57,315 bases of DNA from assembly GCA_030264375.1 (NCBI GenBank), contig JASCQW010000032.1, positions 30,356,095 through 30,413,409 on the forward strand, written 5' to 3'. Source of the DNA: Carcharhinus longimanus. Taxonomy: Eukaryota. Positions 10,391 to 55,500 of this stretch are shown one piece after another; positions within the stretch are counted from its first letter, which is position 1; every line of letters starts with the position of its first letter. The notes beneath the pieces are model-generated. The model did not search any database and was not told the origin of the DNA. It saw only the letters and a program-made list of their open reading frames with translations. Made by a program: the position numbers and the translations under genes.

Positions 10391-10950
10391 GGGCCCGATT
10401 TTTTTTTCCATCATGTTGTGCCCATTTTCAGGCATGAAACCTTGGTAAAGTCAGGTGTGAGGTGAGTAGCACAATCAGCGCCCGCCTCCACGCCAGTTCC
10501 CTCTTTACCAAGGCCTGAAAATGGCCACAATTGGGACATGCATTTAAATTGACTTACTGGGCTGCACGTCCAACTTTACTGGCACCTCCCCCTTTACCAT
10601 CGTGTTCACCCATCCAGAATCAGCATGAAACAGACATGCTCCACAAAAGTCCAATTCAAGTGCTCCAGTTAGTGAGGAGATAAGTGCTGAGAGTGCTGGG
10701 CATCCAACGTTTCTCTGCTTGAGATTGGGAGAGGGGGGGACGAGGAATGGGGATCCACTGCCACTCTGCCTGAGATGAGTGGAGGGAAGGTGGGGGTGGT
10801 CTGCTGCCACTCTGTCTGAGATCAGTGGGGGTAAAGGGGGTGGGGTGGGGCCACGATCGGTCTGGGTGGCAGGAAGATAAAGGGGTCAGTAATGTGAGGG
10901 TGGGGCGTTATCCGGCCCAGGATGGATGTGGTGAGGGAGCAGCATTCTAA
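10391..10950. mobile_element. Non-autonomous Harbinger-like element (GC-rich)
   Basis: Starts with a gggcccgatttt TIR-like end; internal G-rich repeats (gccactctg.ctgagat twice). Confidence 0.5.
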
Positions 10951-11184: not shown

Positions 11185-12141
11185 GGGTGGAATTTTACCG
11201 GCTCGCCCCATCCATCGATGGGCGGAATGGGCTGGTAAAATCATGCGAGAGCCGAGAAATCATGATCATGCCCAATTTCTTGACTGTCACAATTTTAGGA
11301 GAGACAGATTTCCAGCATGGTCAGCTTCTCACCGGAAATGGGCGAGAAGCTGAATAATTTTTTTTTAAATATGTTTAAATTTGAATTTGCACATGTTTAG
11401 CGAGACTGGCATTCACTTGGCCGGGTTTTTTTGCCTTTACCGTCTCGCCAGGATATGTTCTCTCCAGTGAGGAAAACAACTTCTCCCCAGGAACAGTCAC
11501 GTTGGCCTCACCAACTGAAGGCCATCTAGCCTCCCGGGGAAGCCGAGGGCTGTGCCAGCCTGTCACCACGGTGCTGCCAGCCTGTCAACTGGGCATTACC
11601 TACTAGGCATCTTGGCACCGCCCACCGCATAGGGGTGGGCATGAAGAGGATGGCCCGGCCGTAGGGGGTCCCACTGCCATTCTGCAATTAGGCTCAGATC
11701 AGAGGAGGGCTGCTGCCATTCTCTAACAACATTGGATCAGGGAAGGGGAGGTGCAATCGGTCTGGAGGGGGTGATATTTTCAGGCTGTGTGGGACATGCG
11801 ATTGGTCGCAGGCCCGTGCAGTTCTGGGGGTGGGGACGGGGACTGTTAAGGCTGGTTGCAGTAGCAGAGGCCTGATCGTTCTCTCTGTCAAGCGTTTGCT
11901 GTTGGAATTACGCATGTGCAGTCACAGAGGTCTGCACATGTGCAATAGCTCCCTCTGCTGACTGATCAGGCTGGCTGGTGATTTAAGCCCCATCCACTGC
12001 CTCTAGTAGCTAGAAACAGTCTAGCCCATTTTTTCATGCACTATGTGCATAAGATCAGGAGTAAAAGCTCACTCAAAAACAGATCTGCAACTTTTTTTCA
12101 CGCTAGCTGGCACTTAGAATTTTTCTCATAAAATTCCACCC
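11185..12141. mobile_element. Non-autonomous Harbinger/PIF-type element with 12-bp terminal inverted repeats
   Basis: gggtggaatttt (11185-11196) and aaaattccaccc (12130-12141) are exact reverse complements; non-coding interior. Confidence 0.75.
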
Positions 12142-18194: not shown

Positions 18195-18359
18195 TCATTC
18201 AGTTTCTGGTATATTTGCTAAATGATGAAAAAATGGACGGTCATGAATGCAACTGCTGCAGTCTTTTCCCAGCTGTTGCTGCATCCTTAACATTGTATCT
18301 TCCATGTCTTCCCTTGAGAAATGCAGAGGTAACTGTCGAGCCAGACGAACAGCCTCTCC
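18195..18359 (-). CDS. PMS1: PMS1 last coding exon
   Basis: cttttctgaag acceptor; GEAVRLARQLPLHFSREDMEDTMLRMQQQLGKDCSSCIHDRPFFHHLANIPETE*, matching the human C-terminus GEAVRLSRQLP...CVHGRPFFHHL; 165 bp. Confidence 0.95.
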   Translation of the reverse strand, partial: GEAVRLARQLPLHFSREDMEDTMLRMQQQLGKDCSSCIHDRPFFHHLANIPETE

Positions 18360-20149
18360 CTTCAGAAAAGTGTAAACCGATATATTTTAATAAGCATGTG
18401 AAATTATAGTCAATTTATTGTGATCTACAAGCTTTGAGTAGAGTTGTGTTACGCATCAAATACACATTCACAACATTAATATATATACATTTGACCCACA
18501 CATCCTTCTTTCCTTTTCCTCCCTCACAATCTTTAGTCTTTTGCCTCTTATGTGCTGCAACACAATACTTTATGAAGATGTAACAGTCCATGAATAGGAT
18601 TATTAATTCCTCACTCAATTATTTTTTACAAAGCTTCAAACGACTAACTGATGGTACGTAATAAAACAGAATAGATCATGTATTCACCAGGTGAGGGAAC
18701 TGCAGTTACCAACCTGCACCCTATCACTCTGACACATATCAACATGCCAATCATTTTGTCACACAGATTTCCAGTGTAAGGGTCACTTTGCTTGAAAAGC
18801 TGCAGTGTTCCAGACTTGTCAGAAAATAATTTATTTGGCTGTGTCCCAGTCTGATATATTGGTAGGAAATATGGAACTGGAATTAAAACATTTACTTCTT
18901 AGCTTCACCATCACGAAGATGTGCAGAACAAGCAGGTTGTGTACACACTTCATGGACTGTGCTCTTTGCCCTAAGTTCTGGCTCTGTGACTGGCAGGAAC
19001 GATGGGGCAAAGGACAAAGGTCAAGAGCACAAGTACACAAACCAGGCATTCCTGAAACTGGTCTCAGTTTTGAAAACTTGAATACCTTCATAATGGAGTG
19101 TATGGTAAATTGCATAACGAAATACAAAGAATAGATTTAAAAACATTTGGCCATAAACTTTAAAATTAACTTACTGCACCAAGTTTGCATAGCAAAAAAA
19201 ATTAAAAGGAAATATAATTTAAGATATTCAATATTATTTTTAAGAATCAATATATTGACATTCACTTACTGTAGGCAAATGTTTTATTCAGTGAACCATA
19301 ACTCTGCCTTACAAACAGAATCATAAAATTAAATTTAAAATTTGCATATATCATTCCATTGAGACAGTTATCTTTATGTTCCTTTACCCCATTTCTCAAT
19401 TCTAGGTTGCTGACAGTCCTCTACTAATACATTCAATAGGCCATTTCTTCGGATAAATCTGGAACAAAAATATCAGCATACAAGTACCACCAAGTCTGGT
19501 CCAGCTGAAGCCTGACATCCACCCATATAAACTCACTTTCCAGCAAATATCTTTGGAGAATGGAGGTAGGAAATTTGCACAAATTTACCCTTTCGTTTTC
19601 TGATAACTACAGTATCTTTTGTCAATATCCTGGTCGACATCAGTTAACTAATTATATACTAGGGATCAAGTTTGCAGTTACGTTACATAATGGCAAACAT
19701 GATTGATGGACTGCACTAATTACCAGCCTAACCTCATCACCTGTCCATAAAGTAGCCTTCTTGTGCGAAGCCACAATCAGGGATGAGGCAAGAGATGGCA
19801 TGAGAGGAAAAAAAAGTGGAAAAAAAATGTGCCAGGTATGGTAACGGAAATACCTCAGATCACAACAACATATTACTGGTGAGCAGCGGATGCCAATCAG
19901 GCAGAAAGAGACGGCTCAAGGGTTCAGTGACAGCGAAACTGGCCTCCAGCATCTTAGCAGCACTCCAAATGAGTTATGCAGACAAATTTTTATTTCAAGC
20001 CACTTCAGATGCATAGTATTTGAAAATTACCATTTGCAACTTTATACAAAAGCAAATCATACTACAAGGGAGTTTTGTATATGGTTGAAATTTTTAAATG
20101 TCTCTTGTAGATTAAGTAACCTAAAGGTGCTTCAGTAAATGTACCAGCC

Positions 20150-20210
20150 TGGATGTGGACGTGCCGGCGTTGGACTGGGGTAAACACAGTAAACACTGGG
20201 GTAAACACTG
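20150..20210 (-). mobile_element. Penelope terminal fragment with a small tandem duplication
   Basis: gccggcgttggactggggtaaacacagt matches (reverse complement) the ends at ~40910-40945 and ~51485-51520; actggggtaaacac occurs twice. Confidence 0.6.
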
Positions 20211-20702
20211 TGTTGACCCAGCCTGGAGTACCATTGCATTGTACTCAGGTTTGTGTCTGAAACTGATCATATTTCTCAACCTCAGTTTCAGCTATCAATG
20301 ACAGAGTAGAGGCAATGAATTTCCCCCGAGGAAGGAGGCAAAAATAGAGTGAGGAAGACATTCCATTGCTTATGAGCATTCCCTAGCTGCCAAGTTACAT
20401 AGGGCCATGGCTAGGAGCATATCAGAACTCCCTCCCCCGTCTTAAAGAAATGAAGGAACCAACGCAGGAGAAAAAGTTAAACACCACATATACTTTTTTT
20501 TTTGAAATAAGACAACTTTATATCACAAACATCTAATCTTATCTAACGTCAGTGTGAATAAACCAATAAAAGTGGCTTCATAGCTTGAATTTATCCTGTT
20601 CCATTATCATCAGGATTTTCAATCTAAAACATGTTGACTTCCAAGATGATCACCTGTTAACTTGATGTATTACTTTTGGGGTGTTTTCCACAATTATCTT
20701 AC

Positions 20703-20863
20703 CTCCAAATAATTTACAACCTTTAGAGGTCTGCATTGGGATACACTCTGGGCATTTTTATTTAAAATCGCATTCAGAATTTCTCGCAAGTCTGATATAC
20801 CATAGAAAGGTAAACATCCAGCCATTTCTTCAATTTCCAAATGATGCTCTGCTGTTGAAGCAC
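20703..20863 (-). CDS. PMS1: PMS1 penultimate coding exon
   Basis: AG/GT flanks; (G)[53 protein letters not shown]; 161 bp; phases fit neighbouring exons. Confidence 0.95.
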
Positions 20864-23418
20864 CTATCCATTAAAGAGAGAAAGGACAATTTTAAATTTG
20901 ACAGAATTTTTAACATGTATTAAGTATTTGCATGACATGCAAATAAATAATTGAATACACTTTTAAAGTGATTTAAATGCTAAAACTTAAATAGTGTTAA
21001 CTTAAGAAACTTTCCTTCTACACCACAATAAACTGACAAGTACAAATGAGCTCTGTTTTGAAATTGAAGTGCTATAGCTATTTCAGCTTAAGTTAACTAC
21101 AGCTGCAAACCTTTGCAAGGTTTATCAAAAGTTGCCTCAGGCTCTGACTTGCTCCTTTTGTTAACAATTCCCACATGGCCTGAGTGACATTTGGCAACCT
21201 CTCGGGGATGGCAATACTAAGCAGATTTAAACAAGGCAGTGTGTCTTTCCCCAAGAAAAGGAATCAGTTGTCAAATATGTTTAATAACAAATTTCATCCA
21301 GGGTCAGTGCCTGCATCACCCTGCACAAGGAGCAAGCCCCAGTGGAATGTGTGAGTGACGTATTGCTGAATTGCACATATATGTTATAGAAGATCTTCCT
21401 GGCAGGGACACTGAAAAACCATCATCTCAGCAAGAGGAAAATAAATCTTCACATCATGACCTTTCTTGGAAATAACCATTCTGTTTTAAACAGTCTCAAG
21501 TGGAAATGTTCGCTAGTTCCATCCACTGAGAGAATCTACTTCCATTAGTAAGATTTATATTGGGTAACATTTTTCTTTCCCTATTTCTATTTTTTCTGTC
21601 ACAGAAAGGCTCTTTGTATATGAGGCTTATAACAAAATCAAATCATTTGTGCAAAAATTTAATATTGTTCAGTGTCAAAAGATTGCAATTTAACTCAGAA
21701 GTTATGATTCTATGCTGGCAGAAGTCAATTTTTCTTCTTTAATGTTTCCTTCAAAACAGAAACCAGCAAAGGCAATCAGATAATAACTTCTGTCTGTACT
21801 AAAAGAACCAAGTTTAAATAACGTGTCATTTCCTTCGGTATCCCCCCTTTTTATTAACCCATTAAAGAGAGAGAGATGAATACAATCCAATATCAGAACA
21901 TCACCAGTGGATGTGGTCAGTGATATTCCTGGTTAGTCCACCAGCAGGCGCACTTAAATGGTTTCTCTTACTACCCTTTTACTTCAGGTTAGAATTTGTC
22001 AGAATTAACGGAAGTCGGCAACTTAAATTTAAACGGAGCTGATTTGAAAGTTCTGAGTGGTTTAAAAAAAGCTACATTCAATAACTAAATCAAACCTCAA
22101 AATAGGAATTAAAAAACAATGCCAGTGTGGAATCTACATTGTCCAAGGTGCAGTCTTACAAATTATTATGGAGACAAATATTTTTTGTATAACACCAGCT
22201 GAATCTTGGTTTTGTCTTTTGCTGACCGAGTATGTACAAATCATATATCGTTTACCGAACTTTGCTTAAAACATCAACTTCAAAACCACGTGTTAAGATC
22301 ACTAATATCTTCTTCAAAAATGTTAAATATGGTGTGTAGATTATAAGATTCTAAAAGTGAGAAAACTGACAATCTTTCAACATTTGTTACTGGGAGATTA
22401 ATGCAACGCAGTTTCCATAAATGGAAATGTTTGTGCTTGTGCCAAAGGCCAAAATTTAACTTTTTCCCCCAGGTGCACAGCTTTGGTTTGATGTGCTGTC
22501 ACCGCAAATCTGCTGCAAAGGTTAGACCCCTAAAATTTTTTCCATGTGAGGAAGGTGTGCCTGCAAAAAAACTCATGCTCTTTCTTGCACTGACCAGTTA
22601 CTGACACAGCAAATCTGTCAGAGTAATTTATTGCCATTATTGGGTAGAATGCCTTATCTCTGACACATTTTGCATGTTTTATGGATGATTATGTAAAGTA
22701 TAGATTGCTGGTGACCCAAAAACTGCATTTACCAGTAAGAAGGTCATGACAGAGAGTGCCTTTACACCTCATAGCTCGTTTTAGTACATATGGCTTAAAT
22801 ATAGTTTATTAGGCTAAAGTAACCTTCCAGTTCTTACCAGCTGGTGAAAAGTACACAAAAGATTAGGTTCTTATGAAAATAACCAAAAAATGAATCCCAG
22901 CTTTACCATCATGCACACAACTCATAGATGGAGTGCTTTGGTACAAGAGATTTGAACAATGGCTTAATATTACTAACTCATATTGTTTGTGATTCTTTAC
23001 CTTATCTGAAACTTGTAGTTACAATATTGGTTACTTAAAATAATAAATATTTGAGTAGGCAGCTCATTGCATTCAAACACAAAACAAAATGAAATTACTA
23101 CAAAGTTCTCTCTAAAAGGAGATGCTGAAGCTATCCCCCAAAGGATTTTAGGAATTTATCCATCTCATTTCTCCATACAAAAGCCAATCTTTGGATCAAA
23201 TATACAAATTAACCAAAGATTTGTAAAACCTCTAATTGCACAGTTATAAATAGATGCATTGCGCCTATAATTCCAGACATTAAACAAAACAGAATGTTAT
23301 AAAACAATTAAGTCCTTTCATGGAAATAAAAGGATTTATTCTCTGAATTTTATGTTATTGCAATATTTGGTTTATTTTAAGAATGACAACAGAGTTGATC
23401 CTTATGTTTACAACATAC

Positions 23419-23549
23419 CTGGTATTAATTGTATCTTAAATCCATTAAATACAAGTCTGGGATCTGTAAAATAAGTTATCCCATTCAATGTTGTGCATTT
23501 CTGTTGCATTTTACAGAGACCATCAATATACTGGGGTCCACCAAGCAGG
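23419..23549 (-). CDS. PMS1: PMS1 coding exon
   Basis: tttttcag acceptor and gtatgt donor; (S)LLGGPQYIDGLCKMQQKCTTLNGITYFTDPRLVFNGFKIQLIP(G), like human YLSDPRLTANGFKIKLIPG; 131 bp. Confidence 0.95.
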
Positions 23550-24129
23550 CTGAAAAATATTAGACAACTGGTTAGTCATAGCAATAATAAGTAGTCAAAT
23601 GCAGTAGTTAAACTGGTATGATAGTTTTATTAAATTCCTAACATCAGTTTGCAACCATCACTGTTTAAGCATTTTTAATAGATGTAGTTGGAAATGAAAG
23701 AAGCAATGAGAAAGGAAAGACAATGAATTCGGGAAAAAAATCTAAAGCTGATAATATTTCAAAACTATAGCTAAAGTTCAGTGCTGTTTGAATTAACAAT
23801 CACTGTACTAACTTCATAGCAAAATCTTTCCTTATAGGCAAGGAAGTAGTACAGTATTGTTTTGTTGCCCTGTAACACACACAAAGTTTAAATAAACTAA
23901 GCCTGCAATTGTTAAGGGAAGCAGACTCCGAGAGAGTATTTAAAATTTTCTTCAATGCCTTAATTATAGCATATATTGAGCTGAAAATAATCAATGAGAA
24001 TTCAAGAGTTACAAAATTGATAAGTCATTATTTTCAGGGAGAACTAATACCATATTGCACAATTACTAAATTTTCAAAATTATTGATATTAAAATCCTTA
24101 GATTTTAGAAAAGATTACATTTACAATAC

Positions 24130-24606
24130 CTATTAGTTAGAGCTATTGGTGCATCAAGGGTCTCAGTTTGAAAAATGTGATTCTCCATCAGTCTTCTAAA
24201 CAGTAGAGTTTCCTCCACCCGAAATGGATTTAGCAACATCAGTTTACTTTCAGAAGCAACTATCCATCCATTGTAAGAAGTCAAGCAATTAATGAGATGA
24301 AGTCTTTCAGCACCTGAATCATGGCTTTTGGAAAGTTCTTCAAGCCGTTTTTTTAAATGGCTTAAAGAAAATGGAACATCTATTGTCTTACAAGGTGCTT
24401 CCAAGTTGCTTTTTTTATGGATTTGTGACTGGAAAAGTTTATCCAAAATTTGCTGGTTTGAAAGTGGTGCATTGTGGCACTTCTTAATAAATTTTGTTGC
24501 TGGGGCCAATTTTGGTTGTTTCTCTTCTTCACGTGGATTTCCTTCCATTGCTTTTTTTAGCTGCAAGTTGTATCTGTCTAAGTCCTTTGCAGCTTTTTCT
24601 TCATAC
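24130..24606 (-). CDS. PMS1: PMS1 coding exon (end of HMG box, start of C-terminal domain)
   Basis: cctttag acceptor and gtattg donor; YEEKAAKDLDRYNLQLKKA...LLNPFRVEETLLFRRLMENH...PIALTN, like human YEEKATKDLERYN...[20 protein letters not shown]; 477 bp. Confidence 0.95.
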
Positions 24607-25309
24607 CTAAAGGAATATTGTTCAATTTAAATACTTGAATGAAAAATATACAAAGGTTCTATAGGGCCAATTATGCTGCACATTTGGATGCACTCAAAAT
24701 CACTTCTTAGTTGATCCCAAATGCATAGCATAAATTGACTTTTGGCCCAGAGTGCAAGTCCACCCCAATAAATAGGTGTCACACTACTTTGGCTCCAAAT
24801 TGCAGACAGCGTAACAGCAAACATTAAATATTTCTTTTTCAATGTTGTTGAAACCAGTAAATCATTTTCAATGGTGGAAAATTTTAAATCAAGGTTTGAA
24901 TTTTAACTAAGTCAAACAGAACAAAAATTGTTATAATTGTAACAAAACTTGTAATTAACAAGAATCCATTACATTTAACTCAAATTGATTTACTTAGGAT
25001 AAAGAAAACCATGGGATACAAGAGTCGTGCAATTCCCAATAATTGTAATACAAGTTGAGGTGGGAACAGAATTAAGTGTCTTCTGCTAGGGTGGGATGGC
25101 TGGCCATGCATGATCTCGCATTGGACAATTCATTACATACACATGCACAAGTAACCTGGTGAGATGTACAGTGGGGTGAGCAGGACGTTGTTGCCCCTGT
25201 TGTTACCTCAGGGGTTTGAAGGTCTGGGCACCACATTTAAAGGGCACCCAGAGAGGCATTCACTCACTGCAAGGCGGGAACACCAGTCAGGCTGTCATTC
25301 CAGAGGGGG

Positions 25310-38079: not shown

Positions 38080-38328
38080 GAAGTCTCACAACACCAGGTT
38101 AACGTCCAACCAGTTTATTTGATAGTAAACCCACAAGCTTTCGGAAACGGTGTTCCTTCGTCAGGTATGTGGAAGGTTCTGATCAGAGAAAAGCATATAA
38201 AGACACACACAGTTTACAGGATACTGATTAGAATGCAAGTCTTTACAGCTAACCTGCTCTTCAAGTCTTAAAGACGCAGACAATGTGAGTGGAAAGAGGG
38301 TTAAGCACAGGTTAAAGAAATGTGTATT
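38080..38328 (-). mobile_element. Penelope-like element terminal (pLTR) fragment
   Basis: gaagtctcacaacaccaggtt...tttgatagtaaac...aagctttcgg shared with 40812-40948 and 51328-51523. Confidence 0.75.
38131..38172 (-). ncRNA. Minimal type I hammerhead ribozyme motif (Penelope-associated)
   Basis: Minus strand ccacatac-CTGACGA-aggaac-acc-gtttcc-GAAA-gctt-gtgg: both core boxes, stem II, and palindromic AAGCTT in place of helix III. Confidence 0.7.
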
Positions 38329-40811
38329 NNNNNNNNNNNNNNNNNNNNNNNNNNNNNNNNNNNNNNNNNNNNNNNNNNNNNNNNNNNNNNNNNNNNNNNN
38401 NNNNNNNNNNNNNNNNNNNNNNNNNNNNTCTTATTGAATGGCGGGGCAGGCTCGAAGGGCTAGATGGCCTACTCCTGCTCCTATTTCTTATGTTCTTATG
38501 ACATTATGGGGTCAACTTTACAAGTTAGCGTTCCTGGCTCAGAGCTCTGTAGGTCTTAATTTTAATGACCAGAAAATCATTTGTTGCACTAACTTCCAGC
38601 ATTCGCAGTATTTTGCTTTGACTTTAGCCTCTAATTCCGTGGCCATCTTTGCAGCTTGTCCTTTTGTTGCGCAAGGCTTTGAACTTGAATGAATAATTTG
38701 TAAAATGTGTCCACATGCAACATATACATGCAGGTAATCAATAACATATATGTAATAACAAATGTAGAAGCCCTCCAGATCATACATAAATTTTCTTAGT
38801 CCATACGAATTGCTTTGTTATAAATTAAACACTCATCTTTGATATTCAGTTGTGTTTTGAGTGGATAACTTGCAACTGATGAAAATCACATGCACTTTTT
38901 CATTGCACTTACACAGCTGAAATGCTGAAAGGGCAAATCATTGGGCGCCACTTTGAAAAGTTGGGCTTGTGGCCAAGATCAGTGAATTGATTGCAAGTGC
39001 TTTACTCTGCTTTTCCTATTTAACTAAATGTTTTAAGAGAACTTAAAACTGGCTTCTTGGACACACATTTGGGCATATGCCAATAGGGACATTCTTGGAT
39101 GCAGGCTGGAATTGGGGAATGGTGGCCGAAAATGAGATACATTGAGCAGTAAAAGGAGTGTACAAGCACTTGAATAGGCAGAAATGGGAGCAGGAGGATG
39201 GAGGTAAAGAGAACGACACAGAAATTTTATAAAATAGTTCCTCAGTTGCAAATTCAGAGAAAATAGAATCGTAGAAATTTATTACACAGGAACCCATTTG
39301 GTACATCATCTCCATGCCATCTAAATGCTAAGTAACACATCCTACTTTCCAACTGTGGTCTATAGCCTTATAGATTTCACCACTTCAAGTGCATATTCAA
39401 GTAAATGTGATGAAGCATTCTACCTCCTTTCAAGCAACAAGTTCCAGATCCTTACTATCTCCTGGGTGAAAGTTTCCTCATTTCCAGTTGAATGCTTCCA
39501 TTACTTTAAATCTACACTCCCAGTTATCGACCTTTCTGCTAAGAGAAATAGATCCTTCCTACCCAGGCTCTCCGTAATTTTATACATCTTGATGAAATCT
39601 CATCTTAATCTCCATTATTCCAAAGAAAACAATCCCAGCCTGTCCTATTCTTCCTCAAAGTTAAAACTCTCCAGTCTTGACAACATCTTCATAAATCTCC
39701 TCTGTACCCACTCTAGTGTGATCACATAATGCAATAACCAGAACAGTCTGCAGTAATCTGTGATCTAACTAGTATTTTATACAATTATGGCATCGCCTCC
39801 CTGCTCTTGTATTTTATGCCTCAGCTAAAAGGGAAGTATCCTGCAGGCCTTCTTAAGCAACTTATATACCTATCCTGCTAGCTTCAGGGATTTATGGACA
39901 TGTAATATTCCTCTACATGTCTCTGTAATCTAAAATTTATTGTGTATTTCCTTGGTTGCTTGCCATCATCAAATGTATTATCTTACATTTGCTATCTTTC
40001 TGCTCACTTGATCAGTTCATTGCCATCCTGCAGTCTTGTTCACTATTAACATGACAGCCAATCTTGTATCATCAGCAAACTTCTTAATTAAACTGTCTAC
40101 TTAAGTCCAAATCATTGTTATATGCCACGAAAAACAAGGGGCTTGGTACTGTGCTCAGCCAAAGCCACCAGAAACAGCTTTTGAATTACAAAAATACATA
40201 TCAACCACTCGTCTTTGTTTTCTGTCCCAGAGCCAATTTTAGACCTAATCTGCTTGCTACTTTACCGCTGCTCCCATTTACTTTGCTGACCAGTATGCCA
40301 CGTGGGACCTTATCATAGGCCCTGATAAAATCCATATATACATCAAATGTGCTTCCCTTATTAATACTGCTTGTTACCGCCTCAAAAAATTAATTCAAAT
40401 CTCAACAAATCTCAACATGTGGATTGTCCTTGATTAATCCATGCATTTTAAATGACGAAAATACTGTCCTTCAGAACGATAACTTGTTAATATTTCATCT
40501 ATTCCTTTTTCCCTATTTAAACAATGGTACAATGTTAGCAATACTCTGATGCCACACCCCCCTGCAACCAAAGATTGGAAAATTATGATTATAGACTCCA
40601 CTAATTTCTCCTTTACTTCTCTTAATAGTAGACTGTGTCTGGGCCTGGTGGGTTACCTACTTTCAAAGATAGTAAACGCCTTATTATTTTCTCTTCTGTG
40701 TTGATCCCATCCAATATTAAATTTAATTCTAGTTTGGGAGCTGAATGGGAGGTGCAATGGCTAGTGGGTGGGCTGGAGGTCAACCTCCTTATCCTGGCCT
40801 GTCTGGCCCTA

Positions 40812-40948
40812 GTAAACACAGTAAGAAGTCTCATAACGTTTCAGAAAGCTTGTGGGATTACTATCAAATAAACTGGTTGGACTTTAACCTGGTGTTGAGA
40901 GACTTCTTACTGTGTTTACCCCAGTCCAACACCAGCATCTCTACATCT
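40812..40948 (+). mobile_element. Penelope terminal fragment with a short inverted end
   Basis: gtaaacacagtaagaagtctc ... gagacttcttactgtgtttac inverted pair; retains the gaaagcttgtg half of the hammerhead. Confidence 0.7.
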
Positions 40949-40949
40949 T

Positions 40950-41345
40950 GTTTTTGTTGGAGCAGAGAAGACTGTGGGGGCAATCTGATCAAGATTTAGA
41001 AGAGTGTGAGGGAGAATGTGGACAGAGTGGATAAGGAGCAGCTGTTCCCCTTAGTTGAAGGGTCAGTCACAAAGGGACATAGGTTTAAGGTGAGGGGCAG
41101 GAAGTTTGGGGGGGGATGTAAGGAAAGAAGAAGGTGGTGATAGGTCTGGAATGCACTGCCTGGGAGGGTGGTAGAGGCGAGTCACCTTGCATCCTTTAAA
41201 ATGTACCTGGATGACCACTTGGCACGTCATAACATTCAAGGCTATGGACCAAATTCTAGTAGATGGAATTAGGTGAGAGTTAAGGTGTTTCTCACATGTT
41301 GCTGCAGACTCAATGGGCCTCTTCTGCACTCCTGTGATTCTATGA
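40950..41345 (+). mobile_element. CR1 3' fragment
   Basis: LEQRRLWGNLIKI...VTKGHRFKVRG...WNALPGRVVEA; ends in a gattctatga tail. Confidence 0.8.
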
Positions 41346-49000: not shown

Positions 49001-49195
49001 AGAAGTAACCTCCGATCATGCAAGTTTTATCGTTTTGGTTCACAAGCTTCACACTTGCACTTGATTAGCTGAAGACTTACTTTCATAACGAACCAACAAA
49101 TCACAAATGAGAGGATACATTCAATGAACAAGTTGCAAATGGCAAAGACAACTACCACCACGAACCAGAAGTCCACAAATCATTATCAATGGTAA

Positions 49196-49399
49196 TTTTT
49201 TTTTTTGCTTTTATTCCATTTCAATCCAATCAAGTCCTATTCAGAGTCTCAACAAGTTGAGACATTCCCGATCCAAGCTGACAAGACAGGGCTCTCACCT
49301 CTGTCTTGCGCTTGATCTACATGATCCAAACTGATTGGAGTAGGTATAGCTCATCCACCAAGGCTTGATCCCATCTGCATCTTAGCCAAAAGGCCGAGA
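49196..49399 (-). mobile_element. U2 snRNA-derived polyadenylated retroposon (SINEU-like)
   Basis: TCTCGGCCTTTTGGCTAAGAT is an exact match to U2 nt 7-27; two 48-nt GATCAAGC...TTGGATC hairpin modules; AATAAA and A11 tail. Confidence 0.75.
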
Positions 49400-49479
49400 T
49401 ACTGCTTTAAAAAATGGCTTCAAATGAAGCAGAAATGAAACATAATGACTTCAACCAAGTGCAGTAAATATGGCAGATA

Positions 49480-51044: not shown

Positions 51045-51642
51045 AAATTTTATTTAGTCACAAGTAAGGCTTACACTAACACTGCAATGAAGTTACTGTG
51101 AAATTCCCCTAGTTGCCACACTCTGGTGCCTGTTCNNNNNNNNNNNNNNNNNNNNNNNNNNNNNNNNNNNNNNNNNNNNNNNNNNNNNNNNNNNNNNNNN
51201 NNNNNNNNNNNNNNNNNNNNNNNNNNNNNNNNNNNTAGTTGCCACACTCTGGTGCCTGTTCGGATCAATGAACCCAACCAGCATGTCTTTCAGAATGTGG
51301 GAGGAAACTGGAACACTGCAGGAAACCACACAGTAAGAAGTCTGTCAACACCAGGTTTAAGTCCAACCGATCTATTTGATAGTAAACTCGCAAGCTTTCG
51401 GGGTTTGCCCCTTCCCCGGAACCTTGCAAGTTTACTATCAAATAAATCAGTTGGACTTCAACCTGGTGTTGTCAGACTTCTTACTGTGTTTACCCCAGTC
51501 CAATGCCGGCATCTCCACAGCATGGAAACCACACAGACATGGGTAGAACATGCAAACTCTGCAGAGTCACCCAAGCCGGGAATTGAACCCATGTCCCTGG
51601 CGCTGTGAAGCAGCGGTGCTAACCAATGTGCTACCATGCCGC
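51045..51642 (-). mobile_element. tRNA SINE of the 7322-7632 family, split by a Penelope hairpin insertion and a false gap
   Basis: Head ggcggcatggtagcacattggttagcaccg...gggttcaattcc; tail ttcacagtaacttcattgcagtg...cttgtgac. Confidence 0.85.
51328..51523. mobile_element. Penelope inverted-pLTR hairpin insertion with a 13-bp flanking direct repeat
   Basis: ~75-bp inverted arms within 51328-51489; ggaaaccacacag at 51321-51333 and 51524-51536. Confidence 0.8.
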
Positions 51643-52584: not shown

Positions 52585-55500
52585 GGGGCATTGTGGTATA
52601 ATCACTGAACTGGTAATCAAGAGACACAGGGTAATGCTCTGGGCAGATGGTGGAATTTTAATTCAATAAAAAAAATCTGGAATTAAAAGCTTTAATGAAG
52701 ACTATTGTCAACTGGCATAAAAACCCATCTGGTTCACTACTGTCCTCTAGGGCAGGAAAACCTGCCATCCTTATCTGATCTTGCCTACATGTGACTTCAG
52801 ATCCACAGCAATGTGGATGACTCTTAAATGCTCTCTGAAATAGCCTAAGCAACTAAGTTGTACCAAATTGCTATGAAGTCTATAAAGAGTGAAACTGGAC
52901 AGATCATTCAGCATTGTTCTGGGCACCAGAAACAATGGCAAACTCAATTCTGATAACCCTGCAGGGTCTTCTTTATTAACAACTGGGGGGGGGTGGCGGT
53001 TTGCGCCATAATTAGGAGAGCTGTCTCATGGACTAGTCTAGCCTGACACAGTCATACTGGCAGAATCATACCTTACAGACAATGCCCCAGAAACCACCAT
53101 CCATATGTCCTGTCCCACTGGCAGGACAGATACAGCAGAAGTGGCAGGCGGCACAATAGTATACAGTCAGGAGAAAGTTGCCCTGGGAGTGCTAAATATC
53201 AACTCCGGACCCCATGAAATTTCATTTCATCAGGTTAAGTCTCATGTCAAGGAAACCTCCTGCTGATTACCACATTCACCCCCACCCACTGAATCAGCAC
53301 TCCTCCATATTGAACACCACTTGAAGAAAGCACTGAGGATGGCAAGGGTGCAGAATTTACTCTGGGTGAGGAACTTCCATGTCCATCACCAAGAGTGGCT
53401 TCGTGGCACCACTACTGACCGAGCTGGTCGAGTCCTAAAGGATATAGCTGCCTGACTGGATCTGCAGAAGTTGGTGAGGAAACTAACAGGGGAGAACATA
53501 TTTGACATAATCCTCACCAACCTCCTGTCACAAATGCATCGTGACAGTATTGGTAGGAGTGACCATTGCACAGTACTTGTGGAGACAAAGTCTTGTTTTC
53601 ACACTGAGAATATCCAAGATCATGCTGTGTGGCATTACCATTGTACTGAAGATTTCGAACAGATCCAGCAACTCAAGACTGGGCAACCATGAGGCGCTGT
53701 GGGCTATCACAGTACCAGAACTACTCAATCACAATCTGTAACTTCATAACCCAGCAATTTACATAGATGATTTGGAGTTGGGGAACAAATGTGGTGTGTC
53801 AAAATTCATAGATGACACTAAGATGAGTGGCAAAGTATGCAAAGGATGCTGAAAGTCTGCAAAGGGATACAGATAGTTTAAGTGAGTGGGTGAGGGTTCT
53901 GCAAATGGACTACAATGTTGGTAAATGTGAGGTCATCCATTTTGGTAAGTATACCAGCAAAATGGGCTATTATTTAAATAGTAAAAAATTGCAACATGCT
54001 GCTGTGCAGAGAGATCTGGGTGTCCTTGTGCAGGAATCTCATGGAGTTGGTTTGCAGGTGCATCAGAATTAAGGCGGCAAATGGAATTTTGTCCTTTATT
54101 GCTAGAGGGATGGAGTTTAAAAACAGTGAGGTTATGTTGCAGCTGTATAAGGNNNNNNNNNNNNNNNNNNNNNNNNNNNNNNNNNNNNNNNNNNNNNNNN
54201 NNNNNNNNNNNNNNNNNNNNNNNNNNNNNNNNNNNNNNNNNNNNNNNNNNNNNNNNNNNNNNNNNNNNNNNNNNNNNNNNNNNNNNNNNNNNNNNNNNNN
54301 NNNNNNNNNNNNNNNNNNNNNNNNNNNNNNNNNNNNNNNNNNNNNNNNNNNNNNNNNNNNNNNNNNNNNNNNNNNNNNNNNNNNNNNNNNNNNNNNNNNN
54401 NNNNNNNNNNNNNNNNNNNNNNNNNNNNNNNNNNNNNNNNNNNNNNNNNNNNNNNNNNNNNNNNNNNNNNNNNNNNNNNNNNNNNNNNNNNNNNNNNNNN
54501 NCCCTGCCCGGTGAAGCAGTTGAGGCTACCTCATTTTAAGTCAAGGATAGATACATTTGTGAACGGTTAAGATATTAAGATAGTGGGGGGTAAGTGGATC
54601 TGAGTCCATGAGAAGATCAGCCATGATCTTATTGAATGGCGGAGCAGCCTCGAGGGGCCAGATGGCCTACTCCTGCTCCTAGTTCTTATGTCTTTATATT
54701 CCCCGACTCCAGCCTTACCACCAAGCCATGGGATCAATCCTAATTCAATGAAAGGTGCAGGAGGGAATGCCAAGAGCAGAAGCACACATACCTAAAAATG
54801 AGTTGTCGACCTGCTGATTGTACAGCAAGGACTACTTGCGTGCCAAACTACATAAGCAGCAATTTATAGACAGGGGTTAGCAATCTCACAATCAAAAGAT
54901 CAGATCTAAACTCTGCAGTCTTGCCACATATAGGTGCTGGTGGACAATTAAGCAACTCATTGCAGAAGGACGCTCCATAAATATTCCATCCTCAACGATG
55001 GGGGAGCCTAGCAGAACAGTGCACAAAATAAGGATAAGCCACAAGTGCCGAATGGATGATCCATCTCAGCTTCCTCTGAGGATCCCCAGCATCATAGATG
55101 CCAGCCTTCAGACCAGGTCAGAAGCTAGGAATCCTGTGGTGAGCAGCTCACTTCCTGACTCCTCAAAGCCTCTCCACAATCTACAAGGCACAAGTTAGGA
55201 GTGCGATAGAATACTCTTTCCTTGCCTGGGGAAGTGCCGCTCCAACAACACCAGAAGCTTGACATCATTCAGAACAAAGCGGACTGCTTGACTGGCATCC
55301 CTTCCACAAACATTCAATGCCTCCACCATCAATATACAATAGCAGCAGTGTGATCTATCTACAAGATGCACTCCAGGAATTTATCAAGGGTCTTTAGACA
55401 GCACCTTCCAAACCCATGACCACTACTATCTAGAAGGACCAGGCCAGCAAATGCATGGGACCACCAGTTCCCCTGCAAGCCACTCATCATCTTGACTTGG

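Follow-up and report, generated by a model that had tools for sequence, protein, structure and literature searches.

A 210-nt element in shark DNA joins an exact U2 snRNA head to two tandem 48-nt modules and a 3′ A tail. The branch-pairing region, stem IIa and the Sm site of U2 are lost, and the element has no ORF. We consider it, with a probability of about 0.5, to be a single retroposed copy of a short, composite, non-splicing RNA that arose from U2 by rearrangement, is SINEU-like and would probably represent an undescribed shark family. The element is real and unusual, and in its workings it is most like SINEU; membership of SINEU would require many copies with one structure. The window, by which we mean the whole 57,315-nt stretch of DNA that was analyzed, holds this one copy and no second.

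Layout of the element

The features are given below with the evidence for each in brackets.

49405-49196, minus strand: whole element, 210 nt
49406-49414, minus strand: T6/A3 stretch that adjoins the 5′ end; a candidate target site of L1 type, in which at most three A's are duplicated (sequence)
49400-49405, minus strand: six bases in place of U2 nt 1-6 (1/6 identical), three of which lengthen stem I (pairing counts, pair probabilities)
49379-49399, minus strand: head, exact U2 snRNA nt 7-27, stem-loop I, including T4 (Rfam and 21-mer matches)
49371-49378, minus strand: 8-nt spacer; with the next four bases, a weak likeness to the module closer (sequence)
49323-49370, minus strand: module 1, 48 nt; outer 8-bp stem common to both modules, 7/12 inner pairs in the module 2 register (folds, alignment)
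49318-49322, minus strand: 5-nt linker; the repeat period is 53 nt (sequence)
49270-49317, minus strand: module 2, 48 nt; hairpin of 20 pairs with a GAGA tetraloop (folds)
49246-49263, minus strand: 7-bp hairpin with a CUUG loop; candidate counterpart of stem IIb or stem III in U2, or of stem-loop 3 in U1 (alignments, the last by eye)
49207-49245, minus strand: 3′ single-stranded, purine-rich region with AATAAA at 49215-49210 and no Sm site; can pair with the start of module 1 (motif scan, duplex test)
49196-49206, minus strand: A11 tail (A-run count)
18198-24623, minus strand: PMS1, last four coding exons, approximately residues 609-925 (protein matches)

The head, modules, small hairpin, AATAAA and A11 had been picked out by the first-pass annotation, and the sequence agrees at these minus-strand coordinates. 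The element contains no N run, and no ORF of at least 100 aa overlaps it in any frame. At gathering score, Rfam gave 0 matches across the whole window. By E-value, the U2 head alone was matched, and the head-less body gave three chance matches. A covariance model of the two modules (R1), scanned over the window, returned these two modules alone below an E-value of 0.4. The predicted fold of the whole element beats 200 of 200 shuffles (z -3.73). The body without the head has a fold z of -2.2, and at least 6 of 131 window stretches rank above it.

Elsewhere in the window, stretches at about 40801-40972, 10401-10572 and 11201-11372 have fold z-scores of -5.4, -5.3 and -3.9, respectively (12 shuffles each). 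The first of them overlaps a short repeat that has inverted copies near 38080 and at 51330-51520.

The U2 head and the 5′ end

The head (49399-49379) is identical to U2 nt 7-27 at 21 of 21 positions, and the chance expectation for any U2 21-mer in the window is 4e-6. Reference loci were obtained by scanning a contig collection with the head 21-mer, which yielded 52 occurrences in 49 loci of contaminant eukaryotes. Rfam classified 14 of 20 such loci as full-length U2 (119-184 bits), five as partial and one as below threshold. The exact head that had been claimed is thus borne out, both by the identity itself and by full-length U2s that carry the same 21-mer. The U2 covariance model, which the first-pass annotation had proposed as a check, recognizes the head (19.5 bits, U2 7-26, below the RF00004 gathering score of 46) and nothing in the body. 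As an observation on the collection, the 49 eukaryotic U2 stretches sit in bacterial MAG records, so these records hold eukaryotic contaminant contigs.

The six bases that precede the head share one position with U2 nt 1-6. A U2-type nt 1-6 is kept in 51 of the 52 fetched heads, the exception being locus L026, the sole occurrence in which the head starts at nt 7; a C follows nt 27 in all 52. The new bases lengthen stem I. Three of them pair with the bases after the head, giving 3/3 pairs in the element as against 0/3 at the same U2 positions, with predicted pair probabilities of 0.98-0.99. Stem I of spliceosomal U2 must unwind for U6 pairing (PMC8516221), so an RNA with this lengthened stem probably could not act as U2.

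The T6/A3 stretch ends exactly six bases ahead of U2 nt 7, and the 5′ end of the element therefore likely coincides with U2 +1. The stretch fits, on the opposite strand, the L1 consensus target site 5′-TTTT/A (PMC4476161). Of 22052 random points, 344 have TTTTAA within the 20 nt upstream of them. The lack of a clear target-site duplication (TSD), already noted at first annotation, holds: the best flank match in the TSD search is 6 nt long and falls inside the element, and nothing was found beyond the possible three A's.

Two other readings of this region were rejected. In one, the tail pairs with the flank (49442-49432) in an 11-bp helix and the 5′ end would shift upstream, but shuffled flanks do as well (695/3000 and 257/400); the boundary is likely rather than proven. 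The spacer as a third module closer is weak (p ~0.05): with the next four bases it reaches 83%, and its 5/8 matches are reached by 10080 of 200000 random 8-mers. Just upstream of the element on the minus strand lie an 11-nt direct repeat (49454-49444 and 49423-49413, 31 nt apart) and a 5-bp hairpin (49430-49417).

Twin modules and folding

The description of two tandem 48-nt modules with near-identical ends stands. Modules 1 (49370-49323) and 2 (49317-49270) are identical at 25 of 48 positions, and the identity is concentrated at their ends, where the first 8 nt are identical and the last 12 nt agree at 11, making 19 of 20 terminal bases. The inner 28 nt share 6. No other such pair exists in the window at a spacing of 40-70 nt.

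The first-pass annotation also had each module fold on itself. This is borne out for module 2; module 1, taken alone, does not stand out from its shuffles. Module 2 is predicted to fold at -24.3 kcal/mol (z -4.85, 0/200 shuffles equal), and it carries much of the fold strength of the whole element. Module 1 reaches -9.1 kcal/mol (z 0.0), which 86 of 200 shuffles equal, and does so in a register of its own; in the module 2 register it falls to -4.7 kcal/mol. In that register 7 of 12 inner pairs are kept, 5 of them by changes on both sides. Such both-side changes arose in 14 of 500 cases in one test; among 20000 shuffles they were equalled in 180 when Watson-Crick pairs were counted and in 1602 when G-U was allowed. 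With two sequences to compare, these changes give hints of a conserved module structure. In the whole-element prediction module 1 opens, and its 5′ arm pairs with the tail at a probability of about 0.6. The duplex between the tail and the start of module 1 is predicted at -10.7 kcal/mol, and 33 of 5000 shuffles equal it.

The 3′ tail

A11 (49206-49196) is the longest of eight A runs of at least 9 on either strand of the window, and AATAAA with at least 7 A's inside the next 25 nt occurs in this case alone. The pairing of AATAAA with an A11 tail, recorded at first annotation, is therefore the sole one in the window. A tail of the retroposition type is supported. AATAAA ends 3 nt before the A tail. 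This is too near for normal processing under the spacing rule of cleavage and polyadenylation, so the tail was probably templated.

As a lead only, the 16 nt that precede the A tail agree at 13 positions with the 5′ arm of stem III in the human U2 sequence given by PMC3089480; the differences are three G-to-A changes, two of which create AATAAA. The match was made by eye and post hoc in a purine-rich sequence.

U2 functions lost and identities rejected

The branch-pairing hexamer (branch-point recognition sequence) is absent from the element, as is any Sm motif. The equivalents of stem IIa keep 3/6 and 4/6 pairs. An equivalent of stem IIc with 8/9 pairs was rejected, 831 of 5000 shuffles being equal.

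The element is not a simple truncated U2 processed pseudogene, in agreement with the first-pass annotation, for about 170 nt of body non-contiguous with U2 lies between head and tail. The same annotation had named a U2-targeting Keno or Utopia junction as the identity that would overturn it. The anatomy differs: the head ends at nt 27, and there is neither an ORF nor a downstream U2 half. The body was compared with the 49 fetched loci, and the best E-value was 0.31.

H/ACA RNAs have a hairpin-H box-hairpin-ACA layout with pseudouridylation pockets. An H/ACA or scaRNA identity was rejected: the only ACA lies inside the module 2 stem, the stem has no pocket, and there is no Rfam match. UGAG occurs near both module apices; a C/D RNA reading was also rejected. 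The element does not appear to be a tRNA-headed SINE; no tRNA was found in it. Against the A and B box consensus of Pol III promoters, A-box-like motifs lie at 49388 and 49360 (minus strand). A B-like motif at 49370 is perfect but lies 7 nt after the first A-like motif, which is too close, and another at 49317 (minus strand) has one mismatch. T4 precedes these boxes. The motifs are absent from 15 true U2s, and A-like motifs occur 114 times in the window. Imperfect in spacing or match, the boxes are a lead on how such an element might be transcribed. Searches of plasmid and phage collections stayed at chance level (best E-values 2 and 0.7 among the matches listed).

Origin of the body

It had been proposed that the whole body tracks U2 and not just the head. 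This is only partly supported by sequence comparison. The unanchored tests do not favour it. With local alignment of the body to U2, 38-624 of 1000 shuffles were equal (four scorings, five references), and with profile HMMs 109-557 of 2000. A local pair-HMM gave 15-64 of 500, and two of 13 decoys, 5S and SRP, gave 8 and 9. Covariance models, including the Rfam U2 model and our own model of U2 from nt 25 (R3), found nothing in the body. The tail alone is at chance level against U2 (60-1460 of 2000).

The module ends, and module 2 with the tail when anchored, are what remains of the proposal. Anchored tests reach p values of about 0.001-0.05 under most scorings; the outcome shifts with the scoring, from 0 to 191 of 2000 among shuffles and from 9 to 604 of 2000 among background stretches, and all anchors were picked after looking. 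Both shared module ends are U2 7-mers that occur in order near the head, which 1040 of 2,000,000 simulated hairpin modules match. When a pair-HMM set module 2 and the tail against U2 starting at nt 25, its score was equalled by 0-2 of 1000 shuffles and by none of 1000 background stretches. Once the heptamer is removed the counts are 11 and 18 of 1000, and the reverse-strand control, at 16 and 97, comes close to this on shuffles.

MAFFT aligns module 2 plus tail with U2 25-127 with few gaps. Against the U2 of locus L039 this alignment has 52 of 97 positions identical, with 27 transitions and 18 transversions, a transition excess. Its combined score without the heptamer, which is the best of four statistics, was equalled by one shuffle in 250 and by none of 250 background stretches; the other three statistics gave 9, 9 and 18 of 250. 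The reverse strand is at null, and ten decoy RNA stretches in the same test gave 14-97 of 100. The A tail starts where this alignment stops, in the tetraloop of stem III.

Two finer placements made at first annotation were not upheld. The small hairpin, assigned to the position of stem IIb, is ambiguous, as it falls on U2 stem IIb in one alignment, on U2 stem III in another and, by eye, on U1 stem-loop 3. The 3′ stretch had been likened to the sequence just before the Sm site; the 5′ arm of stem III fits the last 16 nt at least as well.

The body may instead be U1, or a U1/U2 mosaic, joined to a U2 head through a common heptamer, a variant of our preferred explanation that overlaps it and that we hold unlikely. 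The heptamer that opens the modules is common to U2 25-31 and U1 loop I, and there is a 7/8 match to the U1 5′ end at 49347. The R1 model picked U1 in L014-type loci (E 0.47), although it also picked U2 nt 21-51 (E 0.76). In two of the five scorings tried, none of 2000 shuffles equalled the local match to L014 U1, but L014 was itself selected by search. In the MAFFT test U1 35-140 gave 0 of 200, which puts it level with U2, and locus L011 alone 1 of 100. A mixture of U1 and U2 has precedent in SINEU-1C/H and SINEU-2 as described in PMC4494074. Against a U1 body, the sole vertebrate-type U1 (L003, first 121 nt) is at null, module 1 does not fit U1 in the module register (489/600), and our own U1 covariance model (R2) found nothing in the body. 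The U1 signal depends on two non-vertebrate-type sequences. U1 and U2 have no mutual likeness in the MAFFT test (66-75 of 100).

On these comparisons, made with a single copy, U2 is favoured over U1 for the body. We lean slightly towards U2 as the source. An unrelated body appears a good deal less probable, and a U1 or mosaic body a little less probable again.

How the element may have arisen

The preferred explanation, a retroposed copy of a rearranged U2 derivative, can be put as four steps. A source gene elsewhere would have derived from U2 with stem-loop I retained; the stretch after stem-loop I (approximately nt 25-61) would have been duplicated, and a self-complementary insert would have replaced the branch-pairing region in each copy. 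The RNA would start at U2 +1, probably from an upstream Pol II promoter of snRNA type or in the flank. Since T4 lies only 15 nt in, a Pol II promoter is probable. A protein of the L1/Tx1 clade would then pick up the A-tailed RNA in trans and insert it by target priming at T6/A3. The present copy, whose upstream region was set by eye beside those of five U2 genes, would be promoterless, probably inert, and carried in the PMS1 pre-mRNA. The perfect head, perfect module 2 stem and intact tail suggest a young copy near its source, so that the remodelling would have occurred in the source lineage. No partner LINE for the element was identified.

An unlikely competitor is a one-off chimera. While copying another A-tailed RNA rich in hairpins, either the 3′ end of a LINE or a cellular RNA, the reverse transcriptase would have switched to U2 and appended nt 7-27, and the body likeness would be chance. 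Unanchored tests do leave the body without significance, L026 offers the one parallel for a head that begins at nt 7, and snRNA/LINE template-switch chimeras are documented (PMC4476161). In the same account, however, template switching in human is nearly confined to U6 and U6atac. The near-universal retention of U2-type nt 1-6 in the fetched heads, the three extra stem I pairs, which join bases flanking both sides of the head, and the anchored colinearity with U2 also speak against a chimera.

Rather doubtful is the reading of the element as a retrocopy of a functional shark ncRNA, a U2 paralogue that may be under structural selection, with stem I shut and two equivalent protein-binding hairpins. 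The modules have the same length and 5 both-side pair changes, though their inner 28 nt share 6; the 5′ end lies on U2 +1, and the stem I extension would be expected to block use in splicing. On the other hand, only two sequences can be compared, module 1 prefers another register and opens in the whole-element fold, the pair changes are equalled by more shuffles once G-U is allowed, and SINE masters keep structure too. In its fullest form, which we think equally doubtful, a shark U2 paralogue would have left the spliceosome, with stem I shut, the branch region turned into two covarying 48-nt hairpins and Sm maturation exchanged for an A tail, as an ncRNA that seeds retroposons as 7SL seeded Alu.

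We find it improbable that the element is a non-autonomous Keno-like Tx1 with an internal deletion, in which the head would come from the target, the modules from the LINE 5′ UTR and the tail from the 3′ end. The module inserts are located between nt 31 and 40 of U2, and an AATAAA directly before an A tail is L1/Tx1-like. Keno and Utopia target U2 nt 38/39 (PMC4640811), and some crocodilian Tx1-Mar carry U1 or U2 heads (PMC4494074). Yet the fetched junctions nearly all keep the head from nt 1, pass nt 27 and enter an ORF, and the body is unmatched among the 49 loci. A product of chance or assembly can be dismissed: the window has 11 N runs, one of them 160 nt upstream of the element, but the minute expectation for the head, the unique module pair, the unique tail and the absence of N's inside the element leave it next to no credence.

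Genomic context and other loci

The exon at 24623-24132 (minus strand) matches PMS1 (PDB 2cs1). Its closest proteins all belong to sharks, namely Mustelus asterias (90%), Scyliorhinus canicula (89%) and Carcharodon carcharias (87%), which identifies the host as a shark. Six assembly gaps separate the PMS1 exons from the element, 24.6 kb upstream of them. The first-pass annotation had placed it sense to a PMS1 intron. The common minus strand agrees with this, and the element is probably intronic, a position deduced from the exons found. No exons for PMS1 residues 1-608 were found in the 32.7 kb upstream of the first exon located (24624-57315); either the intron is very long or the exons were lost in assembly gaps.

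Two further observations concern the surroundings. An exon-like stretch followed by GTAAGT (49081-49180, minus strand) lies about 115 nt downstream of the A tail; the stretch, which ends at 49081, has no match in three shark PMS1 proteins. A repeat at 53829-53895, which we take to be CR1-like, recurs from about 80 nt upstream of the element.

The fetched loci also hold structures of their own. L040:595-784 (plus strand) holds a U2-like gene of full length (150.8 bits) that is non-canonical in its branch-pairing stretch and in stem IIa, as also in L004, L026 and L029. Beside the L040 gene, U2 5′ parts with the same change lead into a zinc-finger-like ORF, and some heads are duplicated. L040-type loci resemble insertions of the Utopia type in a lineage whose own U2 is a variant. 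In L033:3-551 (minus strand) the 5′ part of U2, which carries a small internal deletion, is followed by a T-rich UTR and then by an ORF that matches Pfam PF23057 (RBD_ZCCHC3_1st, E 3e-17); the locus is likely a Keno-like Tx1 5′ junction. Similar U2-then-ORF junctions, at differing U2 positions, occur in L005, L010 and L017; these three and L040 were read from ORF lists only. A tandem unit with 5S rRNA, U2 and U1 genes is present in L014:1-1221 and its sister loci, with a spacing of about 2081 nt. L003 and L011 link U1 with U2, and L028 links U2, U4, U5, U6 and tRNA.

Comparison with known systems

Among the papers listed in full-text literature searches, no snRNA-headed SINE from a shark or ray appeared; within this scope, the earlier remark that no shark equivalent has been described holds. 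If the element is what we propose, it would be a second, independent case, in sharks, and the route from spliceosomal RNA to retroposon would be repeatable. A family whose 5′ end lies at U2 +1, if true, would make the promoter question testable through the source locus. The twin modules, with inner sequence replaced and length kept, would offer a covariation test of recognition by an L1/Tx1 or host protein. If this copy is the only one, the element is a curiosity.

Spliceosomal U2 (RF00004) has in common with the element stem-loop I and possibly the order of parts to about nt 127; the element lacks the branch-pairing sequence, stem IIa, the Sm site and stem IV. Processed snRNA pseudogenes and chimeras of the U6/L1 type share an L1-type T/A site, an A tail and a 5′ snRNA (PMC4476161). 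Those pseudogenes, as that source describes them, are contiguous recognizable snRNA, and poly(A)-tailed U2 copies make up 0% of its human set. Duplicated remodelled modules are not among the snRNA pseudogenes and chimeras as far as its description extends. Keno (Tx1 clade) and Utopia also join a U2 5′ fragment to non-U2 sequence, but both are lodged within U2 genes, at nt 38/39, and code for proteins according to PMC4640811. In the element the head ends at nt 27 and lacks nt 1-6, the A tail follows about 170 nt on, and there is no ORF.

SINEU is the closest likeness. In the description by Kojima (2015, PMC4494074), SINEU is reported from crocodilians alone and its transcription is left open. 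The account includes U2 heads, partial duplications, an internal deletion, internal oligo-T and poly(A), and a TSD accompanies some insertions but not others; SINEU-2 insertions show duplication, deletion or neither, and SINEU-3 is an internally rearranged U2 (PMC4494074). Like SINEU-1, -2 and -3 as described there, the element has an snRNA head, a length below 500 nt, poly(A), internal oligo-T, partial duplications and no evident promoter. Of the traits of SINEU, the element has the U2-derived 5′ head, the 3′ poly(A) and the short, non-coding sequence. SINEU is mobilized by Tx1 (Tx1-Mar) with a target preference, and the site of the shark element looks L1-type. Set beside SINEU by its published description, the element differs in its shark host, in the bases that stand in place of U2 nt 1-6 and in a longer stem I. 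Beyond the 21-nt head its snRNA likeness is faint, at about 50% identity, and recast as twin 48-nt hairpins.
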